Virus record (IMG/VR): IMGVR_UViG_3300009152_000029
Direction: 5' to 3' (one strand)
DNA length: 64,000 nucleotides
DNA from: an uncultured virus (IMG/VR IMGVR_UViG_3300009152_000029)
Taxonomy: Duplodnaviria > Heunggongvirae > Uroviricota > Caudoviricetes
In this document: positions 45,673 through 64,000 of the stretch, piece after piece
Layout: each line of letters opens with the position of its first letter
How positions within the stretch are numbered: position 1 is the stretch's first letter
Notes under the pieces: model-generated
Told to the model about the DNA's origin: nothing
Databases searched by the model: none
Seen by the model: the letters and a program-made list of their open reading frames with translations, nothing else
Translations under genes and position numbers: made by a program

Positions 45673-45727
45673 CACACCCTTAAACATCTGATACTATAAG
45701 ACATCAAACGAAAGGGTCGAAGCCAAA

Positions 45728-48077: not shown

Positions 48078-48142
48078 ACTATTTCGAGGGGAGATTTTCG
48101 AGTCTCCCCTTTCTTATATGTTAGAGATGATATAATACAGCT

Positions 48143-49201: not shown

Positions 49202-49509
49202 CAAATAAAGAAAGAAAGATATTGGATAAAGAACTCCAATATCTTTGCGATTACCAAGACCGAGTTAAGGCAATCAGAGAATACACTGGAATTCATCCAC
49301 ATAAAACATTTCTCAATGAAGTAGAGACAATTGAAAGTCTTTATAAGTCAGTACTAGAGAACCGCAAACAATGCAAGTCAACTTACTTCTCTGTTGGAAC
49401 TGCTGGTTGGTTTGTTGTTTACCTAAGAGACAAGAAGAAATATAAAGAGGGTGAAGAATTTAGTATTAAAATCTATCACACTTTTGTCTGGTCTGATAAT
49501 CTTGATTGA
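49198..49509 (+). CDS. hypothetical protein
   Basis: GGAAGCCAAA leader; terminator follows. Confidence 0.6.
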   Translation: MTNKERKILDKELQYLCDYQDRVKAIREYTGIHPHKTFLNEVETIESLYKSVLENRKQCKSTYFSVGTAGWFVVYLRDKKKYKEGEEFSIKIYHTFVWSDNLD

Positions 49510-49625
49510 ACCTAATATCCCAAAGAATTTTCTTTGGGATATTTTTTAGTAATATCTTTGATATTACTCATTTAAAAAACAAAAAATATATTTTGCACCT
49601 TTATGACAATATGATATAATACGTT

Positions 49626-50186
49626 ATGTCCGAAGAGAATACCCCAACCTTAATACTTGATAATGACGTGCCTAAGGGAGAAAAGAAATTTACTTACTTC
49701 ATTACAGAACGTCACGGTTATGTTCAAACTACATTGCCCTATCTGCGTAAACTAAAGATTTCAAAACTCATCAGCAAGTTTTCCCGTAGAGACCGCAATA
49801 AAGTATTCATTGAAGAAGACGGTGATTTGAGACTATTCTTAAAGCGACATAGAGTAGACGGCATCAATGTTATATTAGAAGAAGATTTCTCATTACCACA
49901 ATATCGTTTTGATAATATGATAAATCACGACGATTACTCTTGGACTGGCGAACAATTTGATGGATTCAAAAGCGATTGGACATTATCCTTCCAATGCATC
50001 TTCTCAAAAACAGACAGCATCAAACACGTTAGAGATGGTATCTTTGAGACTAAAGATGGCAAACAAATCAAGATATATCCTACAGTGTATGTTGACGGAA
50101 AACCACTCAAGGCACATCAGGCAAAGAAACTAGGCTTTGAGCCCATCGCTATTGATACGAAAGACTTGGAAGAATACAATGACTGA
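49626..50186 (+). CDS. hypothetical protein
   Basis: TTGCAC..TGnTATAAT promoter immediately upstream. Confidence 0.6.
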   Translation: MSEENTPTLILDNDVPKGEKKFTYFITERHGYVQTTLPYLRKLKISKLISKFSRRDRNKVFIEEDGDLRLFLKRHRVDGINVILEEDFSLPQYRFDNMINHDDYSWTGEQFDGFKSDWTLSFQCIFSKTDSIKHVRDGIFETKDGKQIKIYPTVYVDGKPLKAHQAKKLGFEPIAIDTKDLEEYND

Positions 50187-50478
50187 AACACAAACTATCC
50201 GGGAATATATTGAAACACTTGATGGAGCAATTACATACGATGGTTGTGATTCAGCTCTCGTCGGTACTGCTAAAGTAATTAGAGAAGAACAATGGGTGGA
50301 AATTGCAATCTACTCATATGAAAGACTTGTTGAACATTTTAAAAACGAATATCTCTCTGACTCTGAAAATCCAATCTCTGAAGACGAAGCAGAAGAGGAC
50401 GCTTTCGAATGGGTAGATTTTAATATTGCAGGTGGATATCTTGGAATTAGAACTCCTATGATAATCTCCACCGAATAA
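50137..50478 (+). CDS. hypothetical phage protein (likely start MTETQ)
   Basis: DGCDSALVG...AIYSYE...EWVDFNIAGGYLG..TP motif common in phages. Confidence 0.65.
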   Translation: MSPSLLIRKTWKNTMTETQTIREYIETLDGAITYDGCDSALVGTAKVIREEQWVEIAIYSYERLVEHFKNEYLSDSENPISEDEAEEDAFEWVDFNIAGGYLGIRTPMIISTE

Positions 50479-50492
50479 TGTAAAAAAAATAT

Positions 50493-51149
50493 ATGGACAT
50501 TTTCTTTCACGTATATTTAAAATCTGGATATTCTCGTATCCTTATTGATAAATTTAAAAAGTTCAAATCTTCTGGCCTCTATGATAGTGCTAATAAGATT
50601 TATCTTACATTATATGGAGACATTGAATTTAACTCTGAATTCTTAAATGAATTAAAAGATATGTATTCAAAAATAGAATACGGAATTGTCTCTAATGCTG
50701 TTTTTAATAATGAACCTGATACTCTCAACTTAATGTTAAAAAAAGCAAATGAATATGAATCTAATACTCCTATGCTCTATCTGCACACTAAAGGTTTATC
50801 TTACACAAACCCTGATGTAAAAAAGAATGTAGAGGCCTGGGTTAGATATTTAGATTTATATGTAATTAATAAATGGAAAGAATGCGTAGAGTCTTTAAAA
50901 GATAATGATTCAGCTGGCGGATTTTACGTGGAAGAACCAAAACACTTCCAAGGAAATTTCTGGTGGGCTAATTCAGATTACATAAAGAATCTTCCAAAAC
51001 TTACACCAGATAATATTGAAAATTATAATAGGGGAGAATTTTGGATTCTTTCACAGACAGATAAAGTATATCCGCTATCAGGTGTTACTCCCGTCAATAT
51101 GTATCAAAACTATTATTGCAAAGTAGAAGACTTTCCAGATGGATGGTAA
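50493..51149 (+). CDS. putative glycosyltransferase-like protein
   Basis: LYLHTKG and HFQGNFWWANSDYIKNL motifs. Confidence 0.55.
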   Translation: MDIFFHVYLKSGYSRILIDKFKKFKSSGLYDSANKIYLTLYGDIEFNSEFLNELKDMYSKIEYGIVSNAVFNNEPDTLNLMLKKANEYESNTPMLYLHTKGLSYTNPDVKKNVEAWVRYLDLYVINKWKECVESLKDNDSAGGFYVEEPKHFQGNFWWANSDYIKNLPKLTPDNIENYNRGEFWILSQTDKVYPLSGVTPVNMYQNYYCKVEDFPDGW

Positions 51150-51163
51150 ATTTAAAATATAAG

Positions 51164-51203
51164 AACTTTCTTAAGCCGGGGATTTCCCCGGCTTAAGAAA
51201 GTT
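51164..51203. repeat. perfect 19-bp inverted repeat
   Basis: AACTTTCTTAAGCCGGGGA-tt-TCCCCGGCTTAAGAAAGTT. Confidence 0.9.
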
Positions 51204-51346
51204 GTCAAGTTTTTTATTTTCTTGACAAAAACAAGCTTTTGTGATAGTCCTGGCATTCAAAAATATATTTAAAATACTTGTGGCAACTAGTATACACAGA
51301 TGGTAATATTCAGTATCACATTGTTTGATAAGGAAGCCAACCCGTT

Positions 51347-52663
51347 ATGTCGAATACACCTAAATCGTTCCTTGAACTGGACGATGCACCAGTCAAGGTC
51401 ACACCAAACACCTCTGTTTTCACCAATGCCCAGTCCCTTCAACCCCGTGAAGGTGCTGTAGCCAAGCAAGATGCTAGTGGTAATTGGGTGAATGCCATTG
51501 GGCTTCAGTCCTCTGCATCACACCGCCACGTTGCCAAGCAATGGCAGGCTAAATGTACACCGCTTGCCGATTTCATCGAAACAATTAAGTCACAATCGAC
51601 CAACAAGGTAGATGTAATCAAGCCAGAATCAGAAATTCGCCTCAAGGATGTTGAAACCTTGATTGACGGTACACCTCTTACCGATTCAGGTATCAATTCC
51701 TTACGTATGTTCACAGACATTCCATCGTCAATGGTTAACTTTCTCAAGGAAAGGGAATACAACGATGACTTGGTCAAGTTTGTCAATGCAGACTTAGACC
51801 GCCGTGAAACTGACTGGAATAACAAGGGTAAGGAAAAGCGTTCCTTTAATGTCCGCATCCGTCACGATGATGATGGTAACGATGTTATCCGGGCTATTGT
51901 ATCAGAACGATACGGCGTGATTGACAATCACGAAGCAATGGAAATGGTAGCCAATGCTCTGCCATCTTTGAATGATGCTCTTGCTTCACACCTCTTCAAT
52001 GATGGTGATGATATCTATGGGAACATCCTCTTGCCAGACTATATGAAGAGTGAACCAGACTCTGACTATGGCGTGGGCATTGCATTCAAGAACAGTGAGA
52101 TTCGTAATTCAACATTCAAGATTTCGCCTTTCCTGTTTAGAGCAATCTGCCTCAATGGTATGATATGGGGACGTATGAATTCAGAAATCAACGTCAACCA
52201 ACGCCATATGGGTAAGATTGACCTTGGAGACCTTCAATTGCAAGTTACCCAAGCAATCAAGGTTGCATTGACACAAGGCAATGATATGTTGACCTTGTTA
52301 GGATATGCAAAGCAAGTCAAGGTTAAGAACCCTGTTGCTGTAATTGCTCAGTTGGCTAGGGATGAAAAGATGACCATCGAACAGGGTAAACTCTGGCACA
52401 AGGGCTACTTGGATTCCTTGCACGAACGCCACGGCGATGTTCACGAAAAGTCTGCCTTTGGTATCATCAATGGCTTGACCCGCTCTGCCCAAGATTACAC
52501 CGGGGCAACCCGTGAAGAGATGGAAACCTTAGCAAGCAAGATACTTGCACCATCCATTGATTCTTCATTGGAAGAGATTTCCAAGCGATGGGGTCTAATT
52601 GACGCTAGAGCAAACCAAATGGAAGAAAAGGTCTCACGACAATACCAGTTTGTGGGCGTTTAG
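51347..52663 (+). CDS. DUF932-family protein
   Basis: RAIVSERYGVIDN, GIAFKNSE, FLFRAICLNGMI, RHMG. Confidence 0.75.
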   Translation: MSNTPKSFLELDDAPVKVTPNTSVFTNAQSLQPREGAVAKQDASGNWVNAIGLQSSASHRHVAKQWQAKCTPLADFIETIKSQSTNKVDVIKPESEIRLKDVETLIDGTPLTDSGINSLRMFTDIPSSMVNFLKEREYNDDLVKFVNADLDRRETDWNNKGKEKRSFNVRIRHDDDGNDVIRAIVSERYGVIDNHEAMEMVANALPSLNDALASHLFNDGDDIYGNILLPDYMKSEPDSDYGVGIAFKNSEIRNSTFKISPFLFRAICLNGMIWGRMNSEINVNQRHMGKIDLGDLQLQVTQAIKVALTQGNDMLTLLGYAKQVKVKNPVAVIAQLARDEKMTIEQGKLWHKGYLDSLHERHGDVHEKSAFGIINGLTRSAQDYTGATREEMETLASKILAPSIDSSLEEISKRWGLIDARANQMEEKVSRQYQFVGV

Positions 52664-52767
52664 CCCACAAATCTTCCAATAAGGACGTTATAATTGCACT
52701 AAATGCTCTTATAGCGTCCTTATTTGTGCTTAAATGCAGCTAAAAAAATAATTTGACATTCTATGAC

Positions 52768-52789
52768 AGGTCTGGTAGACACCAGACCT
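52768..52789. repeat. 22-bp palindrome family member
   Basis: AGGTCTGGT-agac-ACCAGACCT. Confidence 0.8.
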
Positions 52790-52876
52790 AAAAAAATTTG
52801 TCAATTTTTTTTATTTCAAATATAGTACTTGCACACCATATACACAGATGGTAATATTCTAGTGAGGAAACCTATT

Positions 52877-54985
52877 ATGAAAATCGCTGAATCGACAATT
52901 CAAGTCCAGTCATCTGGCATCCAGTCCGAAGCATTCTTTACTGTCAAGCAGTCTAACATTGGTCATATCTTTGGCATTCTCCGCAACCAGTTGTATAGCA
53001 ACAAGCCTCTTGCCATCATTCGTGAATACTGCACAAATGCATTTGACGCACACATTGATGCAGGTATTCCAAGCCGACCGATTGAGGTATCATTCCCAAC
53101 AGCATTCAAGAATTCTTTGACTATCCGTGATTTTGGCAAGGGTCTGTCAGAGTCTGAAGTTTACAATATCTTTGTTTCGTATGGCGAATCAACCAAACGT
53201 GGAACAAATGAGCAGGTTGGAATGTTGGGTCTTGGTAGCAAGTCTGCATTCTGTTATGTAAACGATTTCACCATCACGTCATATCACAATGGTGTAAAGT
53301 CAGTTTACCTCGCATATATTGATGAAACCAACATCGGTAAGATTTCCAAGATATCTGAGGAAGCAACATCTGAAACTGGATTGGCAATTGATATCGTTGT
53401 TAAGACAATCGACCTGTCCCAATTCCGTGAGGTAGCAGGTTCGTTCCTTGCAGAATTCAACCCACAGCCAATAGTTAAGAATGATGACCGGGTTGTAAAT
53501 TTGTTGCAACGTCAGGTCGAAAAATCTTTCGTTGTCAGTACTGAAGACTATGCTATTCACACTTGGGGATTCAATCAAAAGTCTTGTGTCAGAATGGGGA
53601 ATGTTAACTATCCATTTCACATTGATGATTTGGGTTTGACGAGTGATGAATTCAAGACTGTAGAGTGCTTCCGCAATCTAAAGGTTAAGCTCTATGCCCC
53701 GATAGGTAGTGTTGTTCCATCTGCCTCCCGTGAATCTTTGGAAATGAATACAAAGACCAAACAATATATCTTTGAGGCACTGAAAGGAATTCATTCCACA
53801 GTCAAGGGTCAAATTGATGAGAGACTATCTGAATGCAAGAGTTTCTATCAATTTGCTCTTGAATTTGAAAACACTAATCAGATAAGAGATGTTTTTAATC
53901 TCATTTCAATCTATGGTGGCAAAGCATATAGAACAAATTCCAATATGCTTCTTTACAGGAAAGATTACCCTGCCATTAAGGAGATAGAAGAAATCCGAAA
54001 TGATGCACGTTCGTCATTCAAAAATTCATCATCTCTGAACATAGTAGAGGGACAAACCTTATTTGCCTACTATGGCAATGTCCCTCAAAATTCGATTCGC
54101 CAGAGAATTATGAATTCTGGTTATTCAAAGTTGTCGGGATTCCTTTTGCGTTTTGCGTCAAAGGCTGATTGCGATTCAATTGTTAACCACCCAGAATGGC
54201 AGGGTGCAAATTTTGTCGATGTATCAACATTGCAATACAGCAAGGTCACAGGCAAATCTGCTGGGTCGTTTGCCACAAGCGAAGTCTACAGTTATTGTCC
54301 CCATCAAAGCACCTTGCGAAACACTTGGAAATCGACCACGCTTTCTCTCCAACAATCCGAAGGAATCTATGTTGAGATTAAGCGATTCCTCCCTGTAGCC
54401 AAACACCCTAATGGTACAAATATTAAGACAATGGAAGCATTCAAAGAATTGCTGTCCAATGCTCATACATTAGGAATCAGATGTGACAACATTTACGGTG
54501 TCAAGTATTGCGACATTGAAAAATTGGGTTCTGGATGGATTGAGATAACTGATTACATCCAGCAGTCGCTTTACAATCAAACCGATGAAGAAATTATGAA
54601 ATTCAATCAGTATCTGATATCGCTTGATGTGTCTGATGAATGGCAATATGCCTTCAGAAAAAATATGGTAGACACTGACAGAGACTTAACCCGTCTAAAG
54701 GAAATCATATCAGAGTATTACAGTTCTGGTTTGTCCATTTCAAACCAAGGTGAAAGAGTTTCATTCCTTAAGAAGCAAGGTTATGGTTTGTATCTTGACA
54801 TTTACAATGAATGCATAGAATTAGTAGATAAAACCCTAATTAAATACCCAATTTTGCGTAATTTGTTCGGATATTCACAAAAATCATCACATTATAGTGA
54901 ATCTCCGACCGAAAAGTACTGGTATATTGTCAATGAGTACCTTAAGTCGCAAGATTATCTGAAAAGTGAGGGCTTATTGGACTAA
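52877..54985 (+). CDS. rIIA: rIIA-like protein (GHKL ATPase N-terminus)
   Basis: LYSNKPLAIIREYCTNAFDAH, IRDFGKG, YGESTKR, GMLGLGSKS, ASRESL; adjacent to rIIB; GAGG RBS before ATG 52877. Confidence 0.85.
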   Translation: MKIAESTIQVQSSGIQSEAFFTVKQSNIGHIFGILRNQLYSNKPLAIIREYCTNAFDAHIDAGIPSRPIEVSFPTAFKNSLTIRDFGKGLSESEVYNIFVSYGESTKRGTNEQVGMLGLGSKSAFCYVNDFTITSYHNGVKSVYLAYIDETNIGKISKISEEATSETGLAIDIVVKTIDLSQFREVAGSFLAEFNPQPIVKNDDRVVNLLQRQVEKSFVVSTEDYAIHTWGFNQKSCVRMGNVNYPFHIDDLGLTSDEFKTVECFRNLKVKLYAPIGSVVPSASRESLEMNTKTKQYIFEALKGIHSTVKGQIDERLSECKSFYQFALEFENTNQIRDVFNLISIYGGKAYRTNSNMLLYRKDYPAIKEIEEIRNDARSSFKNSSSLNIVEGQTLFAYYGNVPQNSIRQRIMNSGYSKLSGFLLRFASKADCDSIVNHPEWQGANFVDVSTLQYSKVTGKSAGSFATSEVYSYCPHQSTLRNTWKSTTLSLQQSEGIYVEIKRFLPVAKHPNGTNIKTMEAFKELLSNAHTLGIRCDNIYGVKYCDIEKLGSGWIEITDYIQQSLYNQTDEEIMKFNQYLISLDVSDEWQYAFRKNMVDTDRDLTRLKEIISEYYSSGLSISNQGERVSFLKKQGYGLYLDIYNECIELVDKTLIKYPILRNLFGYSQKSSHYSESPTEKYWYIVNEYLKSQDYLKSEGLLD

Positions 54986-55060
54986 TAGGTTTCCTCAAAA
55001 CAAATAGTCCAATAGGAAAAGGAGGCTTTCGAGCCTCCTTTTTTTTTGATAGAATTTCGA

Positions 55061-55082
55061 AGGGATGGTAATTACCATCCCT
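55061..55082. repeat. 22-bp palindrome family member
   Basis: AGGGATGGT-aatt-ACCATCCCT. Confidence 0.8.
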
Positions 55083-55209
55083 AAAAAATATATGCAAGAA
55101 AATATTTTTTTCGAGCTTGCACTATTTATTTTTCGAGTTTGGCTTGCAGATGATTGTAGATATGGTAAACTGGTATATCGTTCCAGTTATAAAGGTAAAA
55201 AGAAACACT

Positions 55210-56355
55210 ATGACCGTTACAGCCCGTATTGTAAATCCTGACCCTCAATCAGGTTTCATTACTGTAGTATTGGATGGCAAGTCCCATTCAATCAACGCAG
55301 GAAACAAATTGTTCACGAATGCTTTAGAAGCATATAAGGTAAATGACTGGGATGCATTCATCTCTTTTGTCAATCCAGAATTGCGCCTTAAGAGCCTCTA
55401 TGCCAAGTATGAGGGCATTGAAGTTAAGGATGGCAACCTCTACGTCTTTGATGAGCCAGTTCACTCCACTCTTGCAACCCGTGTGCTTTCGTTCCTTGAG
55501 GCAGGGTTGGATTGTGTACACCTCTTCAAGTTTATCTTGAAGTTAAACCTCAATCCATCAAAACGTGCAGTCGATGAATTGTACACCTTCCTTGAGCATC
55601 GTGCATTGCCTATCACAGATAATGGCAATTTCTGTGCTTACAAAGCAGTCCGTGAAGATTACACCGACAAGCACTCTGGCAAGTTCCTCAACACTGTAGA
55701 TGCAGTTCTTGAGATGCCACGCAACAAGGTGGACGATGATAAGAATATTGGATGTTCATATGGCTTTCACGCTGGAACCATTGAATATGCAAAGCAATTT
55801 TCAGGTGGGTATGGTCACATTATGTTGGTGGAAATCAATCCATCTGACGTTGTATCCATTCCAACCGACTGTGAATTCCAGAAACTCCGCACCTGTAAGT
55901 ATAAGGTAGTTGGGGAGTATGAAATCGACCTCACTGACCCATTGTATGCTTCACGCTTCCAGACTGACCAAGATGATGATGTTGATATCTGGAACGATGA
56001 TGATGAAGAAGACCTCTGCTCTGGTTGCGATTCAGAATACAATTCTTGGTGTTGTGAGTGTGAACAGTGCGGAAACTGTTGCGACTGTGAGAATGAGGAT
56101 GAGGAATCTAAGACTGAAATCCAATTGACTCTTCCTCTTGACAACAAGATTCAGAGTGTAGATTGGACGAAGCAAACGGTCAATCTTATCCAATTGGTTG
56201 GTCATCTGTTCTCATCTCGTCGTCCGGCTTTGGCTATGTCAATCAGACGTGAGTTTGATTTCTATGATGACCAGACCCGGATTGCCTTTGAGACACTCCT
56301 TCATCATACTACCCAAGATGATGTCAAGCGCATCTACAACGAACTGAACCCATAG
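55210..56355 (+). CDS. rIIB: rIIB-like protein with Cys-rich acidic C-terminal extension
   Basis: NPSKRAVDELYTFLEH..LPITD.G...YKAVR.DYTD, EMPRNKVDDD...CSYGFH, VEINPSDVVSIP.D...KLRTCKYKVV. Confidence 0.88.
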   Translation: MTVTARIVNPDPQSGFITVVLDGKSHSINAGNKLFTNALEAYKVNDWDAFISFVNPELRLKSLYAKYEGIEVKDGNLYVFDEPVHSTLATRVLSFLEAGLDCVHLFKFILKLNLNPSKRAVDELYTFLEHRALPITDNGNFCAYKAVREDYTDKHSGKFLNTVDAVLEMPRNKVDDDKNIGCSYGFHAGTIEYAKQFSGGYGHIMLVEINPSDVVSIPTDCEFQKLRTCKYKVVGEYEIDLTDPLYASRFQTDQDDDVDIWNDDDEEDLCSGCDSEYNSWCCECEQCGNCCDCENEDEESKTEIQLTLPLDNKIQSVDWTKQTVNLIQLVGHLFSSRRPALAMSIRREFDFYDDQTRIAFETLLHHTTQDDVKRIYNELNP

Positions 56356-56419
56356 TTTCGGTTTTGTCAAGAAAATCCCCCGAAGAAATTTGGGGGATAT
56401 TTTTTTGTCATTTTATTGG

Positions 56420-56441
56420 AGGAATGGTCTTTACCATTCCT
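56420..56441. repeat. 22-bp palindrome family member
   Basis: AGGAATGGT-cttt-ACCATTCCT. Confidence 0.8.
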
Positions 56442-56517
56442 AAAAAAACTTATCAGAAATATTTTTAAACAGGATTAGAGGTAGAGAAAAAAGAAAATCC
56501 ATATAGAGGAAAAACTT

Positions 56518-57267
56518 ATGCCGTATGTTTATCAAGCTGGTGTGTTTACAAGTATTGCAATTAATTTGGGATTAGCTGATAAGCAATTTCAAGATGAATT
56601 GTTGCTTTTAGCTGGGACTGCTGCTTCATATACCAAGACAACTCGTGACTTAATTATTGATTCTTGGGATAATAGCAGCACTGACGCAAATACTGATTCT
56701 ACATTAACACTTTCACAAGCTTTAAGAAGTGCTGAAATTTCTTTGCCATCAACCATTGATCCTGTATATTCTGGGACTTTAGGAGCTTTGAATTCATATT
56801 TCAATGCTGTAGTCGGAGAATCATTCAGAGATTACTTTAATTCAAAAACAACTAGTAGAACAGTAAATTTCGTACAAACTACACCAACATCAACTGGCAC
56901 TGGCTTATCAAGCTTTAGAGACATATATAGAAGAACTTACAATAACGAATTGATTTACAAGCTGCACGAGAGAAATACTGCTGGAACATTTTCAGGAACA
57001 TCAGGTACATATGATAATGCTGGTGCTCTTTTAGAAGTAAGAAAATACGGGGCAGCAAATAGTACTGGAACAATTAGCTTAAGTTGTGTTAGAGCAAATG
57101 ATGGCGGAAGTGATGCTATTGTTTTATCATACACTGCTGGTATTCTTGTCACATACACAAATGCTGCAAAATTAACAACACTTGACAGACGATACTTATA
57201 TGTTTCAGGTGTTGCTATAACTGGAATGTCTGGTTCTGGAGCCAGTTTCGAGGTTTGGACTAGATAA
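56518..57267 (+). CDS. putative virion structural protein
   Basis: T/S/G/A-rich; AGG-N18-AGAAA promoter at 56471-56496. Confidence 0.55.
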   Translation: MPYVYQAGVFTSIAINLGLADKQFQDELLLLAGTAASYTKTTRDLIIDSWDNSSTDANTDSTLTLSQALRSAEISLPSTIDPVYSGTLGALNSYFNAVVGESFRDYFNSKTTSRTVNFVQTTPTSTGTGLSSFRDIYRRTYNNELIYKLHERNTAGTFSGTSGTYDNAGALLEVRKYGAANSTGTISLSCVRANDGGSDAIVLSYTAGILVTYTNAAKLTTLDRRYLYVSGVAITGMSGSGASFEVWTR

Positions 57268-57287
57268 AATATTTAGTATATTTTAAA

Positions 57288-57309
57288 AGGGATGGTGAAT
57301 ACCATCCCT
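57288..57309. repeat. 22-bp palindrome family member (doubles as terminator)
   Basis: AGGGATGGT-gaat-ACCATCCCT followed by a T-run. Confidence 0.8.
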
Positions 57310-57387
57310 TTATTTTTTTGTCAAAGAAAAATAAATGTATAGATAGTTCTTGAATCGGCTAACCCTAATGGTATAATATTAGCGTAT

Positions 57388-57468
57388 CCTCCGGTGGTGG
57401 AACGGTATACACGACGGACTTAAAATCCGTTGGCGCAAGCCTTACGAGTTCGAATCTCGTCTGGAGGA
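57388..57468 (+). tRNA. tRNA-Leu(UAA)
   Basis: CCTCCGG/CTGGAGG acceptor, ACGGA-CTTAAAA-TCCGT anticodon arm, long variable arm, TTCGAAT T-loop; CCA not encoded. Confidence 0.9.
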
Positions 57469-57472
57469 TTTT

Positions 57473-57589
57473 GAGAGAGGTTAGACAAAAGAGTAATCTG
57501 AGTCTTGTCGTGAAAGAAATTTTTAATGTGAAGTGGGAATTGTGCTCTGGATAACTAGTCTCCATCACAGGCAACACATAACCTCTTTC
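57473..57589 (+). ncRNA. unidentified structured RNA between tRNAs
   Basis: Ends pair over 11 bp (GAGAGAGGTTA/TAACCTCTTTC) enclosing two stem-loops. Confidence 0.4.
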
Positions 57590-57598
57590 TTTTAGTTT

Positions 57599-57670
57599 GG
57601 TTCCATAGCTTAACGGTAAAGCAGAATCCTTTTAAGATTTTGAGTGCAGATTCGACTTCTGCTGGAGCCA
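57599..57670 (+). tRNA. tRNA-Lys(UUU)
   Basis: GGTTCCA/TGGAGCC acceptor, GAATC-CTTTTAA-GATTT, GCAGA-TTCGACT-TCTGC. Confidence 0.88.
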
Positions 57671-57770
57671 CTTTTCACTTGTCTTATCTCCACAAGTGAA
57701 ACCAATCCCCTTCTCCGACAAGAAGGGGATTTCCTATTGCAGTACATACAACATATGATATAATACAGGT

Positions 57771-58265
57771 ATGGAAAACACTATTATTACCCCAACCTAC
57801 GAAGTCAATGTTAAGTTTAGTTGGAAATATCCCGGTAAGCCAATTATAAATGTTGAAAAGCAAGGGTATATCCAAACAACCAATACCGAAGATAAATTGA
57901 TTGCTGAAGAATATATTAATTCATTTATTGGCAATTATGAGGTTGGTATTTGTGAAGTGACAGAGATGAATATTCTTTCTCTTAGGAGAGTATTTACCTA
58001 TGATGAATGGGTTGAGAAATACAAACCATTAAAGAATCAATTCGAGGAAACTAGTTTCGAGGGATGTTCTTTCGATTACTCTGAAGATGACCAATGGGAA
58101 TTTGTAAAGAAGCAGAATCCAGAAAACATTTGGACAATGGTTGATTCTGATGATTGCTTTGTTGTAATCTCTGGATGCCATTGGGTAAATCGAGAAAGTT
58201 ATTTTGTCACTGAAAAGCCTGTCCAAAAAGAAGACTTGTCAACTGAATTTCTTGTGATAGAATAG
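57771..58265 (+). CDS. hypothetical phage protein
   Basis: IWTMVDSD...ISGCHWVNRESYFVTEKP motif; TGnTATAAT promoter. Confidence 0.65.
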   Translation: MENTIITPTYEVNVKFSWKYPGKPIINVEKQGYIQTTNTEDKLIAEEYINSFIGNYEVGICEVTEMNILSLRRVFTYDEWVEKYKPLKNQFEETSFEGCSFDYSEDDQWEFVKKQNPENIWTMVDSDDCFVVISGCHWVNRESYFVTEKPVQKEDLSTEFLVIE

Positions 58266-58348
58266 AGTACACAGAATCCGCTCATAATTCTGTGTTCTAT
58301 CCCTCTTCTTCGCTCATAGGAAGAGGGATTTTTTTGCAATTATTCTTA

Positions 58349-58370
58349 AGGAATGGTAAATACCATTCCT
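58349..58370. repeat. 22-bp palindrome family member
   Basis: AGGAATGGT-aaat-ACCATTCCT. Confidence 0.8.
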
Positions 58371-58445
58371 AAAAATATTGATCAAATAATTTTTTAAACT
58401 TGCATACCCTAAAGATATATCGTATTATGAATAAGAGGAAGCCAA

Positions 58446-59177
58446 ATGTCTATCGTTTTAAATAATGAATCTTGTCTTGATTTTTTGCCTCGTGTTGCAG
58501 ATAAATCAGTAAATCTTGTTTTGATTGACCCACCATATACAATTTCACGAGCAACAGGATTCGAGAGTTGTGGAGAGAAGGGTGTTGAAAGATTTAAGAT
58601 GTCCTATGAATTTGGAGAGTGGGATAATGAAATCTTTGTTCTTGATAAGGTTATGGAAGAATCTTATCGTATCCTCAAGCCAGGTGGAACATTAATTTGT
58701 TTCTATGACTTGTGGAAAATCGAGACTCTTAAGAATTGGATTGAGAGTGCCAAGTTTAAGCAACTCCGGTTTATTGAATGGGTAAAGACAAATCCTGTTC
58801 CTATCAATTCGAAGATTAATTATCTCACCAATTCAAGAGAGATAGCCCTTACTGCTATCAAAGGAAGTAAACCAACATTTCATTCTCAATATGATAAGGG
58901 AATTTATGAGTTTGCAATCTGTCATGAGAGAGACCGTTTCCATCCTACTCAAAAGCCTCTCAATTTACTGCAAGCTTTAATTACCAAACACTCCAATGAA
59001 GGCGATACTGTTTTGGATTGTTTTGCTGGCTCTGCTTCTTGTGCAGTGGCTTGCTATAACACTGGACGAAACTTTATGGGTTGTGAATTGGATGAAACTT
59101 ATTACACAAAAGCAACAGAGAGAATCGCTAAATTAAATGACAAAAGTACAAATGTTTCTTCAAGCGTCACAACCTGA
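58446..59177 (+). CDS. N6-adenine/N4-cytosine DNA methyltransferase (beta class)
   Basis: LIDPPY precedes HPTQKP and VLDCFAGS. Confidence 0.9.
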   Translation: MSIVLNNESCLDFLPRVADKSVNLVLIDPPYTISRATGFESCGEKGVERFKMSYEFGEWDNEIFVLDKVMEESYRILKPGGTLICFYDLWKIETLKNWIESAKFKQLRFIEWVKTNPVPINSKINYLTNSREIALTAIKGSKPTFHSQYDKGIYEFAICHERDRFHPTQKPLNLLQALITKHSNEGDTVLDCFAGSASCAVACYNTGRNFMGCELDETYYTKATERIAKLNDKSTNVSSSVTT

Positions 59178-59733
59178 TAGTGATGGTAAAACTCGTCTTT
59201 GGCTATATAGTGAATTGGAAACTTTATATCCCGGCGTAGAATTCCAAACTAAAAATGGTGGAGATTGGAACCGCTCTGATGGACAATTAAAAGATTTCAT
59301 TGTTCATAGAGAAAAAGATAAAAATCGCACTATAGGAATTCGTCTTGATGGTTATAGAGAAACATCAATTGAAAAACGTATACGAACTGATATTTTCAAA
59401 TCAATAAGAAAACAAAGATGCCGTGTTGTTGATGTTGGTGGAGAAAATATCGAGTGTGACCATAAAGACGGACGATATAGTTCTGATACTTATAATAGCG
59501 TAGAAAATCAAAATGAAGATGATTTTCAGCCATTATTGAGGAACGTAAATTTATCAAAGAGAACTCATTGTAAGACGTGTGAGGAAACAAATGAAAGATA
59601 CGATGCAAAAAGGCTTGGTTATTCATTTGGATGGATTGTTGGAGAGTCTAATTATGCAGGCACTTGTGTTGGATGCTATTGGTATGACCCTAGGCAATTT
59701 AATAAAGTAATCTCCAAAGATTATAAACCTTGA
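59137..59733 (+). CDS. IceA1/NlaIII-like HNH restriction endonuclease
   Basis: NGGDWNR, IRLDG, IECDHKDGR, DFQPL...N..KR..CK.C, C.GCYWYDP; overlaps the MTase gene. Confidence 0.7.
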   Translation: MTKVQMFLQASQPDSDGKTRLWLYSELETLYPGVEFQTKNGGDWNRSDGQLKDFIVHREKDKNRTIGIRLDGYRETSIEKRIRTDIFKSIRKQRCRVVDVGGENIECDHKDGRYSSDTYNSVENQNEDDFQPLLRNVNLSKRTHCKTCEETNERYDAKRLGYSFGWIVGESNYAGTCVGCYWYDPRQFNKVISKDYKP

Positions 59734-59757
59734 CAATAGTGTTTTCTTAATGTACAC

Positions 59758-59994
59758 TTGTATATGAAACACGTATTATATGAAGTCACAGATGATTTTG
59801 ACATTATCATCAAATTGACTTTTGAAAATTACAGTTATCTCAATGCCTTTATCGAACAACATACTAAAGAAAAAAAGTATGAGCCAAAATTTCTAGTTCT
59901 TGAAATTAATGATGAGGGTGATATTGATTTCATTAGAACATATAATGGAACCAAAGAAGTTTCCAAAAAACTTGTTGTGGACTACATAGATTAA
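59758..59994 (+). CDS. hypothetical protein
   Basis: TTGACA..TACACT promoter upstream. Confidence 0.55.
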   Translation: MYMKHVLYEVTDDFDIIIKLTFENYSYLNAFIEQHTKEKKYEPKFLVLEINDEGDIDFIRTYNGTKEVSKKLVVDYID

Positions 59995-60132
59995 TGATAT
60001 GCTATATTTGTTCAAGGTGATTACAGCATCAAGAACAAACTCAGAATGTGGTGATTCTGGAAAAATGTGAGAAGAGTGGAAATAACATGGTTCGTATGCC
60101 CGTTACATTCTTCTCACATCTTGGGTAATATT

Positions 60133-60390
60133 ATGAACGACATTCTTCTAAAAGTAGATTTTCCAGTAAAACCACAAACCCTTTATCTATATAAGGGTAA
60201 ATATAAGGTTATTAAAGATGAATTTTTAGAAGGAGTGAATGTCATTAGAACTTATAAATGCTCCGAAGGTTATTTCAGTTATACTTCTATATGGCATCCA
60301 GGTTTTCAGTACCATTATGAAATAGAAACCGAAAAATGTAAATCAAGATTCTTTGAGGGCGAATGGTTTGAAATTATTGATGGTGGATAG
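60133..60390 (+). CDS. hypothetical protein
   Basis: ATG start MNDILLK preferred over the GTG inside the upstream hairpin. Confidence 0.5.
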   Translation: MNDILLKVDFPVKPQTLYLYKGKYKVIKDEFLEGVNVIRTYKCSEGYFSYTSIWHPGFQYHYEIETEKCKSRFFEGEWFEIIDGG

Positions 60391-60445
60391 CTTAAATAAA
60401 GCAGAGGAATAAACCTTTGATATGGGTGTAAGTCCCATTCCACCT
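60381..60445 (+). pseudogene. degenerate tRNA-like element
   Basis: GGTGGA/TCCACC acceptor, GCTT/AAGC D-stem, 6-nt anticodon loop, ATGGG-TGTAAGT-CCCAT T-arm. Confidence 0.5.
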
Positions 60446-60449
60446 TTTG

Positions 60450-60522
60450 GGGCGATTAGCTTAATGGTTAAAGCAGGGGACTCATAATCCCTTGAGTGGG
60501 GGTTCGAGTCCCTCATCGCCCA
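60450..60522 (+). tRNA. tRNA with CAT anticodon (Ile2-like; Met not excluded)
   Basis: GGGCGAT/ATCGCCC acceptor, GGGGA-CTCATAA-TCCCT, TTCGAGT T-loop; resembles bacterial ileX. Confidence 0.88.
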
Positions 60523-60638
60523 TTGTTTCTGGTTGGTTGGTGTTTTGCATGTCCTACTCCTCCCCTCATTGAAATATATGAGGGGATTTTTTTTGACACT
60601 GCTATAACTTTATGATATATTGTTTGTAGAGAAATATT

Positions 60639-60830
60639 ATGCCAAACGATACATTAAACTATTTATCAGACAAATCAGAACACGATTTGCTGGTCATTCT
60701 TGAGGGATTTAAACTACTCTTGGCTGATGCAGAATTATTTGATATGCTTGCTGAAAAGTTAGATATATCTGACGATGTTCTTGTTGAAATCCGTGAAGAT
60801 ATTAGCAAGTTTATGGCAGACGAGGTATAA
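60639..60830 (+). CDS. small acidic protein
   Basis: TTGACA promoter upstream. Confidence 0.55.
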   Translation: MPNDTLNYLSDKSEHDLLVILEGFKLLLADAELFDMLAEKLDISDDVLVEIREDISKFMADEV

Positions 60831-60840
60831 TTTACCTATT

Positions 60841-60927
60841 GGAAGAGTGAGCAGAATGGTATTGCAACCGCCTTGAAAGCGGTCTCACCCTTGACGGGGT
60901 GTGCGGGTTCGAATCCTGTCTCTTCCT
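60841..60927 (+). tRNA. tRNA-Ser(UGA)
   Basis: GGAAGAG/CTCTTCC acceptor, ACCGC-CTTGAAA-GCGGT, long variable arm, TTCGAAT. Confidence 0.88.
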
Positions 60928-60951
60928 TATTCCATAAATAAATAAAACACT

Positions 60952-61242
60952 ATGACACTAGAACAAGCAAATAAAATTAGAGACAGAGTGGATGAATTAA
61001 ATAAATTATATCCAATCAAACTGCGTTACCAGATGATTTGCACAAGTCTTAATAATTTTGCTGTCACCATCACTTTTAATTACACTGAAAATGAGTGGAT
61101 GGAATTTTACGGTATCAATCATATTTATGCTCAAGTTATGGATAAGCTTAATGGATATCAGTTTGCCTTGGAAGCAATACAAGCATATCAAGAAGAGTAT
61201 GGCAATTTAAAGTTTTCTCAATCTGACTTGCCTTTGGGGTAG
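60952..61242 (+). CDS. hypothetical protein
   Basis: ORF followed by a terminator. Confidence 0.55.
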   Translation: MTLEQANKIRDRVDELNKLYPIKLRYQMICTSLNNFAVTITFNYTENEWMEFYGINHIYAQVMDKLNGYQFALEAIQAYQEEYGNLKFSQSDLPLG

Positions 61243-61327
61243 GATAAATAATAAAACAGATTGAGTCTCATCCCTTCCAGTTTAGTAGTGTTTTCTGGAA
61301 GGGATTTTTTATTTGCATTTTATTTTC

Positions 61328-61349
61328 AGGCATTGAGTATACAATGCCT
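61328..61349. repeat. palindrome family variant
   Basis: AGGCATTG-agtata-CAATGCCT. Confidence 0.7.
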
Positions 61350-61443
61350 GATTTTATTATTAAAAATATTTGTTTTGGTGTTCCCAATACGTTGACAATG
61401 TATATATTATCCGAGTATACTATCAATGAAAGGAAGCCATACA

Positions 61444-61776
61444 ATGAGTGTAACAGTTGATTCGGATAAGCGTAAGGTTGGCAATCCTGAATGGAATTTT
61501 GTTCTTCCATATAATGAAGCCAGACTTATTGTCAAAAAGTATAAATTCAAATCAATGAGAGAATATACTGAATGGGTGAGAGAAGAGAAGCCATATGGTT
61601 TATCTACCAATCCATATCAAGTATATACTCGTCGTGGTGAGTGGGTTGGTACTGCTCACTATCTTGGTAAAATTGATTCAATTGTCCAAGAAGACCAGAA
61701 CGTCCACGAAGAAAAGCCCGTTAAATTCTGGAAGATTAGTAACATAATCAAACAGATATTCGGTCTTGGTCAATAA
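61444..61776 (+). CDS. phage-integrase-repeat-like domain protein
   Basis: LPYNEARLIV...KSMREYTEW...P.GL.TNP.QVY...EW.G..HYLG; AGGAAGCC leader gives start 61444. Confidence 0.6.
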   Translation: MSVTVDSDKRKVGNPEWNFVLPYNEARLIVKKYKFKSMREYTEWVREEKPYGLSTNPYQVYTRRGEWVGTAHYLGKIDSIVQEDQNVHEEKPVKFWKISNIIKQIFGLGQ

Positions 61777-61829
61777 ACAATTAGGATACACAATGAAGTG
61801 TATCCTAAAATTTTTTGTCAATAAGCTCT

Positions 61830-61851
61830 AGGAATGGTAATTACCATTCCT
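61830..61851. repeat. 22-bp palindrome family member
   Basis: AGGAATGGT-aatt-ACCATTCCT. Confidence 0.8.
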
Positions 61852-61977
61852 GAAATTTTTATGCAAATAAAAAATATATTCTAAAATATATAGCATAGTT
61901 TGTTGACAACATATAGTAGTTAGGTTATACTACTGGTGTAAGAACAACATAGTTAGTTCTTAGTTGAGAGAAGCCAA

Positions 61978-62463
61978 ATGGAAGATATTTACCCGTACAG
62001 TTATGCAAAGTCCTATGCAATGGGCAGTAAGTTCAAGACGATTAAACAGTACTCCGATGCTGTCAAGGCAGAAGGTCTCAGTTTTCACGCTGACCCTAAG
62101 CGTTACTCCGAGTATACCTCAGCCCATGAGTTCTTGGGTTACACCAAAGAGGAATACACCAAAGTCAAGTGTTCCGTAATGGTGTCTAACCGAAACCAAT
62201 CTGCGGTCAATGCTAAGATTAGGGCAACTTGGGCAAAGAACCGGGTATCACGTCAAGAAACGGCTGGTCAACTACCTTTGCCAAAGCCTAGCCAGTTGAA
62301 GGCTTTTACACCTGAAGAGGTTGTTGACATTCTAGTAAAGTCTAATGCAAGCAGTGAATACATTGCGGACTTTATCAAGACGCACAAGGTCAACAGTGAG
62401 TATGCTGTTGCGGTTTTGATTGACTTGTTGAAGCAAAGCCTTCCATCCGCAGTCACAGTCTAA
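61978..62463 (+). CDS. hypothetical protein, N-terminus weakly like the integrase-repeat unit
   Basis: YSYAKSYA...KTIKQY...DPKRY..Y...EFLG; GAAGCCAA leader. Confidence 0.55.
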   Translation: MEDIYPYSYAKSYAMGSKFKTIKQYSDAVKAEGLSFHADPKRYSEYTSAHEFLGYTKEEYTKVKCSVMVSNRNQSAVNAKIRATWAKNRVSRQETAGQLPLPKPSQLKAFTPEEVVDILVKSNASSEYIADFIKTHKVNSEYAVAVLIDLLKQSLPSAVTV

Positions 62464-62518
62464 CCTGACTATCTCCCCTCCAGAAGTGGAGGGGAGAATA
62501 ATCTTGACAAAATACTTA

Positions 62519-62539
62519 AGGCATTGTAGTACAATGCCT
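62519..62539. repeat. palindrome family variant
   Basis: AGGCATTGT-agt-ACAATGCCT. Confidence 0.7.
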
Positions 62540-62612
62540 ATTGACAATTGTCAAATTTTTTCATAAAATACTTATGCATGAAAATGCAAAATAAAGTTTC
62601 AAGGTAAATGAA

Positions 62613-62813
62613 TTGAAGAAAATTCACCTCTCTAATTTCCGTAAGAAGTTTGATGACAAGTCTTACCAGGCTGTCAAGGATGCTATTGGTAAGAATGCTT
62701 TTTTAGCTAATGAAATCAATATCAATAAGATTATTGATAGTATTACAGACCCAGTCATTAAGAAGAATTTTGTCAAGTGGTCTGATGGTTATGATTTTGC
62801 AATTCTTAATTAA
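62613..62813 (+). CDS. hypothetical protein
   Basis: TTG start with AAGG RBS. Confidence 0.5.
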   Translation: MKKIHLSNFRKKFDDKSYQAVKDAIGKNAFLANEININKIIDSITDPVIKKNFVKWSDGYDFAILN

Positions 62814-63034
62814 AAAGGTTTACTCTTAACATTTTTAGTAATAAGAAACTAGTTTGGTTCTCACGGAGTAAAAAAAGAAAAATTTCTGTTTTTACCATCC
62901 AGATGTTGATAGGTATATTGCCCTTAAGTCAATAATCTAGCAGGCCAACAAATATCCCTCTTTTCAGTAAGAGGGATATTTTTATTTGACAACTCCCAAT
63001 ATATGCGTTATTATATACACATAAGGAGAGCGAT

Positions 63035-63382
63035 ATGGGACTTGATAACCTTTGGAAAAAAAATGACAACGAAGACGCTATGGTAGAAGGCGATTTTTGC
63101 ATCTGTGGCGGTCTATGTTCTGACAATGGAAACTCTTCATTTCGTGGTAAAGTTTATGCTCGTTTTGTAGAAGATGTCACTGGTGTTTGTTTGTATGGCG
63201 ACCCAAAAACTTCCAAAATTTCAAACGAAACTGTAAAGCAGATGGCAACTGACTTGGAAGAAACTGAATGGCGAGATTCTTACATCCAAAACTATGATAT
63301 TGAAGAGCAAGAGTTTAAAGACCTTGCTAGGATGTTTAGACTTCACGCTGATGCTGGTCATTACTTGGTTGCTTTTTATTAA
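63035..63382 (+). CDS. hypothetical phage protein
   Basis: MGLDN start; AAGGAG RBS; TTGACA promoter. Confidence 0.7.
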   Translation: MGLDNLWKKNDNEDAMVEGDFCICGGLCSDNGNSSFRGKVYARFVEDVTGVCLYGDPKTSKISNETVKQMATDLEETEWRDSYIQNYDIEEQEFKDLARMFRLHADAGHYLVAFY

Positions 63383-63636
63383 TGACTATCAATCTACGTA
63401 AAAACATAGCACGGTTTATCTACATTATTGACCAAACAACAAATGTAGAAAGCCGTGCAAAAATTCTCAAAGAACTAGACCTAACTGAAAATGAATTTCA
63501 GGAGCTGGTAGTGAATCTATTGAAATTTAGTAATTCTAATAATAGGGAATTTTATTGCTGCAATCCTGAATATCATGGATTTATTGAAACATTCAAAATT
63601 ATTTCAGAAAAAACAAATACAGAGTTCTTAATCTAA
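63382..63636 (+). CDS. hypothetical protein
   Basis: TAATG-coupled. Confidence 0.55.
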   Translation: MTINLRKNIARFIYIIDQTTNVESRAKILKELDLTENEFQELVVNLLKFSNSNNREFYCCNPEYHGFIETFKIISEKTNTEFLI

Positions 63637-63748
63637 GTGCATCTGCGTTGAATATTATGTATAATATTATCAGACCTTAGTCAAATAAGGCAATAAAAAA
63701 CAGGCAAGACCCCTCCACTTGCCTGTTTTTTATTTAACAATTATCTTA

Positions 63749-63770
63749 AGGTGTGGTAAAGACCACACCT
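63749..63770. repeat. 22-bp palindrome family member
   Basis: AGGTGTGGT-aaag-ACCACACCT. Confidence 0.8.
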
Positions 63771-63920
63771 TTATAAATTTGTCAAAATATTTTTTTCAGC
63801 TCTAAAATAGGTAACTTTTTTTGTTACATATCTCCCGATTTCTATTGCACACTTTTAAAGTATGCCTTATACTATCTTTGTCAGTAAGGAAAAGCCCTTA
63901 ACTGTTGTTTGGAGAAGACA

Positions 63921-64000
63921 ATGTTTGAAGACCTTACACCCTTGAACGAGATTCGTTCAGTGGAACCAACCGTTTCATTCACCCGTAACCAGAACTCTGG
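63921..64000 (+). CDS. hypothetical protein (partial)
   Basis: GGAG RBS, then ATG; open to the window end. Confidence 0.45.
   Translation, partial: MFEDLTPLNEIRSVEPTVSFTRNQNS

Follow-up and report, generated by a model that had tools for sequence, protein, structure and literature searches.

PeSLs (promoter-early stem-loops) have been reported from the T4-type phages RB49/phi1, T4/PST and KVP40/nt-1 (Arbiol et al., 2010, PMC2839356; Comeau et al., 2014, PMC4122927). A PeSL combines a strong sigma-70-like promoter, preceded by an AT-rich region, with a stem-loop acting as transcription terminator, and PeSLs cluster in hyperplastic regions where they mediate indels, replacements and mini-circle formation (PMC2839356, PMC4122927). 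Here we describe a junction of a related kind in a stretch of 64,000 nucleotides (hereafter the window) from an uncultured Caudoviricetes virus, IMG/VR record IMGVR_UViG_3300009152_000029. Its core is a family of intergenic 22-bp palindromes, AGGNNTGGT-N4-ACCANNCCT. These palindromes are confined to one block of the genome, pair strictly while changing on both arms, and sit within a composite junction of recurrent anatomy at which modules are gained and lost. The best overall explanation, to which we assign a probability of roughly 60%, is that they are the conserved core of PeSL-like junctions separating self-contained transcription units and serve to dock a symmetric protein, which would insulate the units or regulate them jointly.

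The window corresponds to bases 169,585-233,584, read on the minus strand, of a 358,269-bp record classed as linear and about 89% complete; places outside the window are given in rc coordinates, which equal the window position plus 124,685. A preliminary description of the window had listed nine palindromes, and all nine exist at the places it gave, each of them between open reading frames (ORFs) or tRNA genes. Seven match the exact pattern (52768-52789, 55061-55082, 56420-56441, 57288-57309, 58349-58370, 61830-61851 and 63749-63770), which did not occur once in 100 shuffles. The two listed as variants are real and share the palindromic build, but with another core and loop length they fall outside the pattern: the copy at 61328-61349 reads AGGCATTG-AGTATA-CAATGCCT, with 8-bp arms and a 6-nt loop, and that at 62519-62539 reads AGGCATTGT-AGT-ACAATGCCT, with a 3-nt loop. 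Arm sequences differ among the exact copies, being AGGTCTGGT/ACCAGACCT around the loop AGAC at 52768, AGGGATGGT/ACCATCCCT at 55061, AGGAATGGT/ACCATTCCT at both 56420 and 61830, and AGGTGTGGT/ACCACACCT at 63749.

The family proved larger than nine. The whole record holds 27 copies, with variants such as AGGCACGGT, AGGTACGGT, AGGGATGAT and AGTTATGGT; the exact pattern occurs 14 times and a reversed-pattern control not at all. All 27 lie within rc 177,453-203,986, that is, in 26.6 kb of 358 kb that run from window position 52,768 to 15 kb past the window end. We built a covariance model (60 columns, 9 pairs) from these copies, searched all 358 kb with it and obtained 57 hits at E<=1, of which 54 are the 27 sites on both strands. 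The model thus found no convincing copy in the other ~330 kb, and the even spread over the genome that had been named as a sign against the element is not what the record displays. A hairpin near window 51,160-51,217 accounts for two of the remaining three hits, one per strand (32.7 and 25.7 bits), and the third is noise. We rejected that hairpin as a member, as it is an 18-bp-stem bidirectional terminator without AGG..CCT. It occupies 51164-51203, after the ORF at 50493-51149, and with T-rich tails on both strands it resembles a strong bidirectional terminator; several lake contigs differ at this point. A palindrome outside the block at rc 283589 (8-bp arms, one mismatch) passed the script filter and was dropped as a chance match before counting.

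Related phages carry the same element. Pattern scans of IMG/VR located it in about 18 contigs of 4-114 kb, and the covariance model gave 227 hits in these relatives (both strands and overlapping loci counted) and 0 hits in two IMG/VR loci with a chance match only. For a census we collected AG[GT]..CT palindromes whose arms measured 8-9 and whose loop measured 3-6, allowing no more than one mismatch and requiring a box resembling TTTGTCAAA on one side. This yielded 103 copies, 22 from the genome itself and 81 from relatives (some of them near-duplicate contigs), with 61 different sequences and 23 arm types among them; the 103 exclude five of the 27 own copies, which do not pass the box filter. 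In an Rfam search only tRNAs exceeded the gathering score and the palindromes matched no family, the sub-threshold overlaps with copies being at chance level (His_leader, 28.6 bits against 49; STnc50, 28 against 55).

Pairing between the arms is close to perfect. The arms had been said to covary, and they pair as described: across the census 916 of 919 arm pairs are Watson-Crick, the three exceptions being two A-C and one T-T, with no G-T at all. In the alignment of the genome's 27 copies, pairing extends to 97.9% of cells, two-sided changes occur in six of the nine pairs (29 cells), and a single G-U stands in the closing pair. None of 500 shuffles reached the observed pairing values, and sliding the partner by 1-3 columns lowered pairing to 34-46%. 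Some bases are held constant within this symmetry: alignment columns A15, G16, C35 and T36 are invariant and G22, T23 and C30 are at least 90% conserved, and changes in the core half-site (TGGT to CGGT, TGAT or TTGT) are symmetric on both arms.

A comparison of matched sites gives a similar picture. We examined 45 own-versus-relative pairs, each inside one BLAST block with a flank identity of 68-93%, some of which are possibly paralogous. The arms agree in 13 pairs and differ in 32, and in 31 of these 32 the relative's copy is still a perfect palindrome. At rc 196,720, for example, AGGCACGGT corresponds to AGGCATGGT and AGGTACGGT, and at rc 197,192 AGTTATGGT corresponds to AGTCATGGT. The window copy at 55061 (GA/TC) faces AGGTGTGGT..ACCACACCT (TG/CA) at position 1538 of relative L005 (L005:1538), with two positions changed on both arms. 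The loop, previously called free, is A/T-rich: AAAT accounts for 20, ATTT for 19 and AAAC for 10 of the 103 copies, so that AAAT and its complement are about equally frequent. Three of the 13 same-arm pairs have an exactly inverted loop (AAAT/ATTT) between unchanged arms at 89-93% flank identity, which hints that the whole palindrome flips.

Folded as single-stranded DNA, the nine window copies reach -8.1 to -11.5 kcal/mol with z-scores of -4.3 to -6.1 (-9.2 kcal/mol and -6.1 for the copy at 52768). The preliminary description had taken the covariation as an argument for an extruded hairpin. This is reasonable, but there is an alternative: quasi-palindromes are known to mutate by template switching during replication, and this too would maintain symmetric arms. 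The invariant AGG..GGT and ACC..CCT bases point to recognition by a specific protein. Together with symmetric change elsewhere, they fit a sequence-specific protein reading a hairpin; they also fit a dimer that binds the duplex, with strand switching templated by the hairpin during replication keeping its site symmetric, and the data do not distinguish between the two. The palindrome may thus dock a protein, extrude as a cruciform, or do both.

The palindrome stands in a junction of ordered parts. Read in the direction of the gene, these are a terminator, a T-rich linker (TTATCTTa), the 22-bp palindrome, aAAAAa, a TTTGTCAAAT box, about 15 nt of A/T, a -35/-10 promoter and a ribosome site. The flank consensus in the direction of the downstream gene is a T run, TTG..A-TTTAT-TTt, the palindrome and a-AAAat-TTTGTCAAAtatatTTtTt. 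TTGTCA boxes had been noticed in the flanks, and their place is fixed: TTTGTCAAA starts 7 nt past the palindrome in nearly all copies. Plus-strand examples in the window are found at 52797-52805 (8/9 match, 7 nt past the palindrome), at 57317-57325 and 63778-63786 (both 9/9) and, as the variant TTGATCAAA, at 58378-58386 (7/9). Three identities for these flanking sequences were considered and dropped. The TTTGTCAAA box is not an IHF site by pattern (strict form in 0 of 102 flanks, relaxed form in 5 of 102); an antisense promoter, with the reversed box as -35 TTGACA and the loop as -10, would have a -10 that always ends in A rather than T; and an ECF-sigma promoter GGAAT..TCAAA misfits in spacing, with 'GGAAT' positions that vary.

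The terminators noted earlier just before the palindromes correspond to terminator-type hairpins. A GC-rich hairpin lies within 50 nt upstream of eight of the nine window copies, with a T run on seven, and the scan tool flags only three of these. The flagged plus-strand hairpins are those at 56375-56405 (upstream of 56420) and 58299-58336 (upstream of 58349), both with a T run, and at 61781-61816 (upstream of 61830), with a T-rich tail. Three more, each with a T run on the plus strand, were read from the sequence: AAGGAGGCT-TTCG-AGCCTCCTT at 55019-55049, upstream of 55061 and not listed by the scan; CCCTTCCAG..CTGGAAGGG at 61272-61312, upstream of 61328; and CAGGCAAG..CTTGCCTG at 63701-63733, upstream of 63749. 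Two repeated terminator families, ATCCCAAGA-N4/5-TCTTGGGAT and CCCTTGAC-N4-GTCAAGGG, flank palindromes beyond the window (L025/L026, rc 192,900-204,100), and the second of them holds a TTGAC that mimics a -35.

On the other side of the palindrome, a promoter had been described some tens of nt downstream. Promoter-like sites do occur there, at distances of 29 to ~74 nt, with no sigma-70-like promoter found between the copy at 56420 and the next gene. The predicted sigma-70-like promoters, all on the plus strand, are TTGCAC-17-TAATAT at 52829-52857, ahead of a rIIA-like gene; TG-extended TTGAAT-16-TATAAT at 57350-57377, ahead of tRNA-Leu; TTGCAT-17-TATTAT at 58400-58428, whose -35 at +29 from the palindrome has the canonical spacing; TTGACA-18-TATACT at 61392-61421 and TTGACA-17-TATACT at 61903-61931; and TTGACA-17-TAAAAT at 62541-62569, directly past the palindrome at 62519. 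A strong sigma-70-type match was found in 23 of 90 distinct downstream flanks, and in 20 of these 23 the -35 lies at +28/+29, a uniformity that we ascribe to common descent of the cassette. Canonical cassettes extend to TAAGGAGTT..ATG at +64 (TAAGGAG..ATG). Both kinds of signal are in excess over window positions 50,000-64,000, with 73 promoter-like sites against 46.6 +- 7.4 and 22 terminator-like sites against 8.6 +- 3.0. Past rc 200.2 kb the genes switch from the plus to the minus strand, and the whole unit switches with them. Three copies (rc 193,001, 199,120 and 200,197) separate convergent genes; they have no promoter and are flanked by terminators on both sides.

This placement bears on whether the palindromes are back-up terminators or RNA 3'-end hairpins, transcribed by read-through and stopping or stabilising the upstream message. 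Three of them are indeed flagged terminator-like on the plus strand (57286-57311, 61326-61351 and 61829-61852); the copy at 57288, which has no separate terminator upstream and is followed by a T run, may itself be one; and the 8 nt past the palindrome are T-rich in 16 of the 103 copies (on the opposite strand, in 5). However, an A-rich tail follows in 61 copies and a mixed one in 26, most copies already stand behind a strong terminator, and termination would not need conserved arm sequences. The 0 of 919 G-T pairs are also unlike the neighbouring RNA hairpins: in 77 upstream hairpins folded as RNA, G-T makes up 88 of 1151 predicted pairs, though the folding program itself allows G-U. We therefore regard a role in termination as very unlikely for the family as a whole; the palindrome is mostly no terminator, and a minority of copies may double as one. 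Action as DNA is favoured by the lack of G-T pairs and of a loop orientation bias, by single copies common to convergent units and by the place after a terminator and before a promoter.

The promoters also bear on an earlier suggestion, that the palindromes are hairpin promoters read by an injected phage RNA polymerase, as in N4. The N4 virion RNA polymerase, a giant injected enzyme, has three promoters with 5-7 bp stems and 3-nt loops, and transcription of this type starts just downstream of the hairpin and needs no host-type promoter. A hairpin-capable sequence upstream of genes would suit such a system, and several very large ORFs of unassigned function could hide a divergent polymerase. 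But good sigma-70-type promoters lie between palindrome and gene, the stems here are of 9 bp with mostly 4-nt loops, and the palindrome is strand-symmetric and occurs between convergent genes. Pfam scans, which took in 382 of 399 called ORFs (the 17 that span borders between 20-kb segments were left out), found no RNA polymerase, integrase/tyrosine recombinase, GntR or Y1 transposase domain. A PHROGs scan of 24 proteins, 21 of them of at least 799 aa, returned structural matches and no virion RNA polymerase, and left several giant ORFs without assignment. A NusG homologue and three ECF-like sigma factors are encoded (window 23104-23637 on the minus strand, window 29674-30213 on the plus strand, L021:8634-9317 and L021:4302-4868), which suggests staged use of host RNA polymerase. 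The N4-type suggestion is thus unsupported, and of all the explanations weighed here we hold it the least probable.

The genome has a G+C content of 33%, and a nucleotide search of 50,697 deposited phage records gave no match. Among the scanned ORFs, Pfam identifies PolIII-alpha, beta clamp, clamp loader, RecA, RecJ, RuvB-like, UvsW-like and GyrA proteins, Hsp70, DnaJ, GroEL and ribonucleotide reductase, and two weak RusA-like proteins. With PolIII-alpha, beta clamp and clamp loader, and with a T4-type polymerase not seen by Pfam, the phage is not T4-like, and its rIIA-like gene has 24-33% identity to known phages. All public runs in which the stretch was found are metagenomes from freshwater or lakes, and no RNA run is among them. 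Two short MAG contigs, assigned to unrelated phyla, were rejected as evidence of a host, since they look like mis-binned phage. The window and the genome record differ at a single one of 64,000 bases, position 59175 (T in the window, A in the record).

The preliminary description had also proposed that the sites are joints delimiting swappable cassettes and had called for a comparison of relatives. When 18 relative segments were compared with this genome by BLAST, the same genes recurred in other orders and orientations; one 6.3-kb stretch, for instance, is composed of blocks matching rc 202.4, 203.7, 202.7, 198.6 (inverted), 191.9 and 204.3 kb in that order. Within the array, homology blocks end within 50 bp of a palindrome in 61 of 141 cases (43%, against 12.1% at random places), within 10 bp in 11 of 141 (8% against 4.1%) and inside the palindrome in 3 of 141 (against 2.2%). 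Cassette joints are thus supported for the junction as a whole, with ends that spread over about +-70 bp rather than focusing on the palindrome. Exchange appears to take place anywhere in the junction and at no fixed site, a pattern that homologous recombination between repeated cassettes would produce.

A restriction-modification module provides an example. Genes for an N6/N4 DNA methylase and an IceA (NlaIII-type) nuclease, whose target we take to be CATG, occupy 58446-59733 on the plus strand by Pfam, with the palindrome at 58349 as their left border. The IceA gene ends within the next -35, that of a promoter TTGACA-17-TACACT at 59730-59758 (plus strand) fused to the gene end. Relative L016 lacks the pair, and its homology stops about 20 nt past the palindrome at 58349. 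In relative L007 the pair is flanked by two junctions, the second of which (terminator, palindrome AGGAATGAT..ATCATTCCT and box) stands just before the -35 of the promoter at 59730 and is missing from this genome. Metagenome contigs from two lake runs include joints that skip the pair. In a contig of run X18, position 58371, which immediately follows the palindrome, is joined to 59729 by 26 nt resembling box and spacer; in a contig of run X8, position 58395 is joined to 59729. Both joints agree with L016 and L007. Summed contig depth over 58406-59806 was several-fold below the flanks in three runs; contig depth is unfit to rank parts and we do not rely on it. Gain and loss of a restriction-modification module at a junction thus seem to be visible in the lake population.

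Other genes of the block, which also include tRNAs, a Tad2-like gene and the rIIA-like gene, fit a variable accessory block, and most of its small ORFs have no Pfam family. The palindrome at 55061 lies between the rIIA-like gene and the next gene, a rIIB candidate. A fifth tRNA-like match at 60381-60446 (plus strand; Rfam tRNA, 36.1 bits against a gathering score of 29) directly precedes tRNA-Met and was not called by ARAGORN. Two small genes resemble Tad2 (Thoeris anti-defence 2), at L026:392-613 and L024:4042-4266, one of them within the array beside an XRE-type gene considered below.

Module exchange raises the alternative that the palindromes are a structure-driven recombination hot spot, where cruciforms or folded palindromes are cut or resolved by RusA-like and RuvB-like enzymes and the resulting breaks promote excision and insertion of modules; the palindromes would then parallel integron attC sites but work without a recombinase. 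Strict Watson-Crick symmetry and stable DNA hairpins would serve this purpose, an A/T-rich centre and flanks favour extrusion, and the genome encodes two RusA-like proteins, a RuvB-like protein and RecA. The joint that begins right after the palindrome at 58371 and the loops inverted between unchanged arms would also fit, and the crossover of an RB49 mini-circle was mapped to the loop of a PeSL stem-loop (PMC2839356). Yet block ends show no concentration within the palindrome, second-order selection for shuffling would be a weak force to keep more than 100 copies so well conserved, and arms of 9 bp are rather short to form stable cruciforms if the phage DNA is relaxed or linear. We consider a hot spot of this sort unlikely. 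Less likely again is that the palindromes are the folded-DNA joints of a recombinase-free cassette-exchange system, a phage analogue of attC, in which a dedicated phage protein would sense the hairpin or cruciform formed by a sequence-specific 9-4-9 palindrome and RusA/RuvB-type enzymes or template switching would process it; promoter-gene-terminator modules, with defence and anti-defence genes among them, would in this way be excised, inserted and inverted, and neighbouring transcription units insulated.

The conserved bases could instead mark a plain operator array. A dimeric helix-turn-helix (HTH) regulator would then bind duplex palindromes and switch the whole block, with arm symmetry a by-product of quasi-palindrome template switching and module shuffling incidental. 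The regulator might be a host factor or a 93-aa XRE-type protein encoded inside the array (L026:683-964), which matches Pfam HTH_3 (E 1e-12) and PHROGs 'transcriptional repressor' families and is one obvious candidate binder. Its gene is present in both relatives that cover this part of the array. In favour of an operator, AGG/CCT is invariant and GGT/ACC nearly so, the inner 5-4-5 layout with an A/T-rich centre resembles 434-type phage repressor operators, and canonical cassettes keep a fixed spacing to box and -35. However, core bases change on both arms together, which would weaken both half-sites of a single regulator; promoterless copies occur at convergent gene ends; the palindrome-promoter distance varies in the window; and the HTH gene, found at only 2 IMG/VR loci, is a small module of this array in its own right. 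We regard an operator array as the strongest of the alternatives and as possible, if still improbable.

A host regulator of the GntR/FadR type (TGGT-Nx-ACCA), raised earlier on the basis of the inner TGGT-N4-ACCA and its likeness to a GntR-family half-site, fares worse. The conserved element spans 22 bp with invariant outer AGG/CCT, its core TGGT varies symmetrically (as CGGT, TGAT and TTGT), none of the 382 phage ORFs scanned has a GntR domain, and the only matches in cellular genomes are the short contigs resembling mis-binned phage. We judge it highly improbable.

On the explanation that we prefer, junctions would split a 27-kb variable block of accessory genes, probably early ones, into self-contained units. 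Each junction would end one gene and start the next from a promoter used by the host RNA polymerase, and the junctions would supply repeated homology at which modules are excised, inserted, reordered and inverted. The palindrome would work as DNA and not as RNA, its two-fold symmetry would be actively kept, most simply by intrastrand hairpin pairing (through cruciform extrusion or as hairpins in single-stranded replication intermediates), and it would serve as the docking site of a dimeric phage or host protein that insulates or co-regulates units. Early timing, protein binding, a hairpin in vivo and any effect on transcription or recombination are inferences.

Several observations weigh against this explanation. 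The labels 'early', 'terminator' and 'promoter' come from consensus matches only. Compact terminator-then-promoter junctions of classical PeSL layout lie in the same block without a palindrome (window 60561-60621 and 62950-63014), and these, with the junction lost here and kept in L007, indicate that the palindrome is dispensable at single sites. A strict role as promoter regulator is weakened by the variable distance between palindrome and promoter (29 to ~74 nt, with none at 56420) and by the three promoterless copies between convergent genes. Block ends are not enriched inside the palindrome, which therefore is not a defined crossover point; BLAST block ends reflect divergence in addition to recombination, and the metagenome joints were called at 85% likeness, at which cross-organism artefacts are possible. 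Lastly, this phage with its PolIII-alpha type polymerase lies outside the T4-like group in which PeSLs were described.

The block also stands out in its restriction sites. The palindromes had been described as confined to a GATC-free region, which is nearly right: a GATC-poor block of 31.2 kb (rc 169,767-200,952, or window 45082-64000 and onward) holds 2 GATC against 70.5 expected at the rate of the remaining genome. It starts, however, 7.7 kb before the first palindrome, and the last six copies (rc 200,816-203,986) lie just beyond its end, where GATC returns. AGCT (52 against 130) and GGCC (5 against 19) are also low in this block. One idea is that the block must survive restriction before the rest of the genome does, as in the first-step transfer of T5. 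CGCG is absent from all 358,269 bases and CATG is rare (26 in the GATC-poor block, about 13 per 31 kb elsewhere), which looks like strong avoidance of restriction sites. A D12-class Dam-like adenine methylase gene (35350-36159, plus strand) adjoins genes for a PD-(D/E)XK nuclease (36161-36637) and a T5orf172-domain protein (36673-37290), and these may form a GATC-type restriction-modification pair 9 kb before the GATC-poor block.

Large phages hold their fastest-changing genes (anti-defence genes, restriction-modification genes, tRNAs and small unassigned genes) in variable blocks, and how such blocks are freely rebuilt without wrecking gene expression is only partly understood. The junctions described here offer a clean natural system, with more than 100 copies of one junction over a clade of lake phages and a core whose symmetry survives sequence change. 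Should the core prove to be a DNA hairpin, extruded or bound by protein, the PeSL idea, for which homology has so far been the sole basis, would gain a defined cis element and a mechanism open to testing, and phage engineering would gain a portable 'terminator-insulator-promoter' part. Were it an operator only, the palindromes would still define the regulon of an early regulator. The element had been called undescribed, and this holds for the palindrome itself, which our literature searches did not find, but not for the type of cassette, which has a described counterpart in the PeSL (PMC2839356, PMC4122927). What appears to be new is the perfectly self-complementary 22-base core; the terminator-promoter module as a type is known from T4-like phages.

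A comparison with PeSLs reveals several parallels. Both are composite intergenic elements directly upstream of a gene that join a stem-loop, an AT-rich stretch, a sigma-70-like promoter and a Shine-Dalgarno sequence; both occur in many copies in a variable block of small ORFs without known function; and both are tied to insertions, deletions, replacements and reordering between relatives. The PeSL stem-loop is the terminator, whereas here the palindrome is distinct from the terminator hairpin, being a sequence-conserved, strictly Watson-Crick 9+4+9 element that mostly lacks a T tail and is followed by a fixed TTTGTCAAA box. The host genome of the element differs as well, as this is a 358-kb PolIII-alpha phage and not a relative of T4. 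Two defining features of PeSLs are therefore absent, the stem-loop not being the terminator and the phage not being T4-like, and we regard the junction as PeSL-like in its working and not as a member of the PeSL class.

Other systems share single features with the palindrome. N4 promoters are likewise short DNA hairpins with conserved bases upstream of early genes, and their function depends on extrusion from the duplex; here, in contrast, there are 27 strand-symmetric copies followed by sigma-70 promoters, and our scans detected no phage polymerase. Integron attC sites are palindromes at the borders of mobile cassettes whose structure is kept through sequence change and recognised as folded DNA. 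They are long and imperfect, with extrahelical bases, they need the IntI tyrosine recombinase and their cassettes are promoterless, whereas the palindromes here are short and perfect, their modules have a promoter and a terminator of their own, and no integrase was found in the ORFs scanned. The REP/BIME elements of enterobacteria are dispersed intergenic palindromes placed after genes and kept by compensatory change, but they are transcribed, imperfect, genome-wide and mobilised by RAYT transposases; the copies here are perfect, lie past the terminator and within one block only, and the scanned ORFs hold no Y1 transposase domain. Operators of the 434/P22 or GntR/FadR type share two-fold symmetry, conserved outer bases and an A/T-rich uncontacted centre with the palindrome, and an XRE HTH gene lies in the array. 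Such operators need no symmetry at uncontacted or variable positions, whereas here every variable position co-varies, including core half-site bases.

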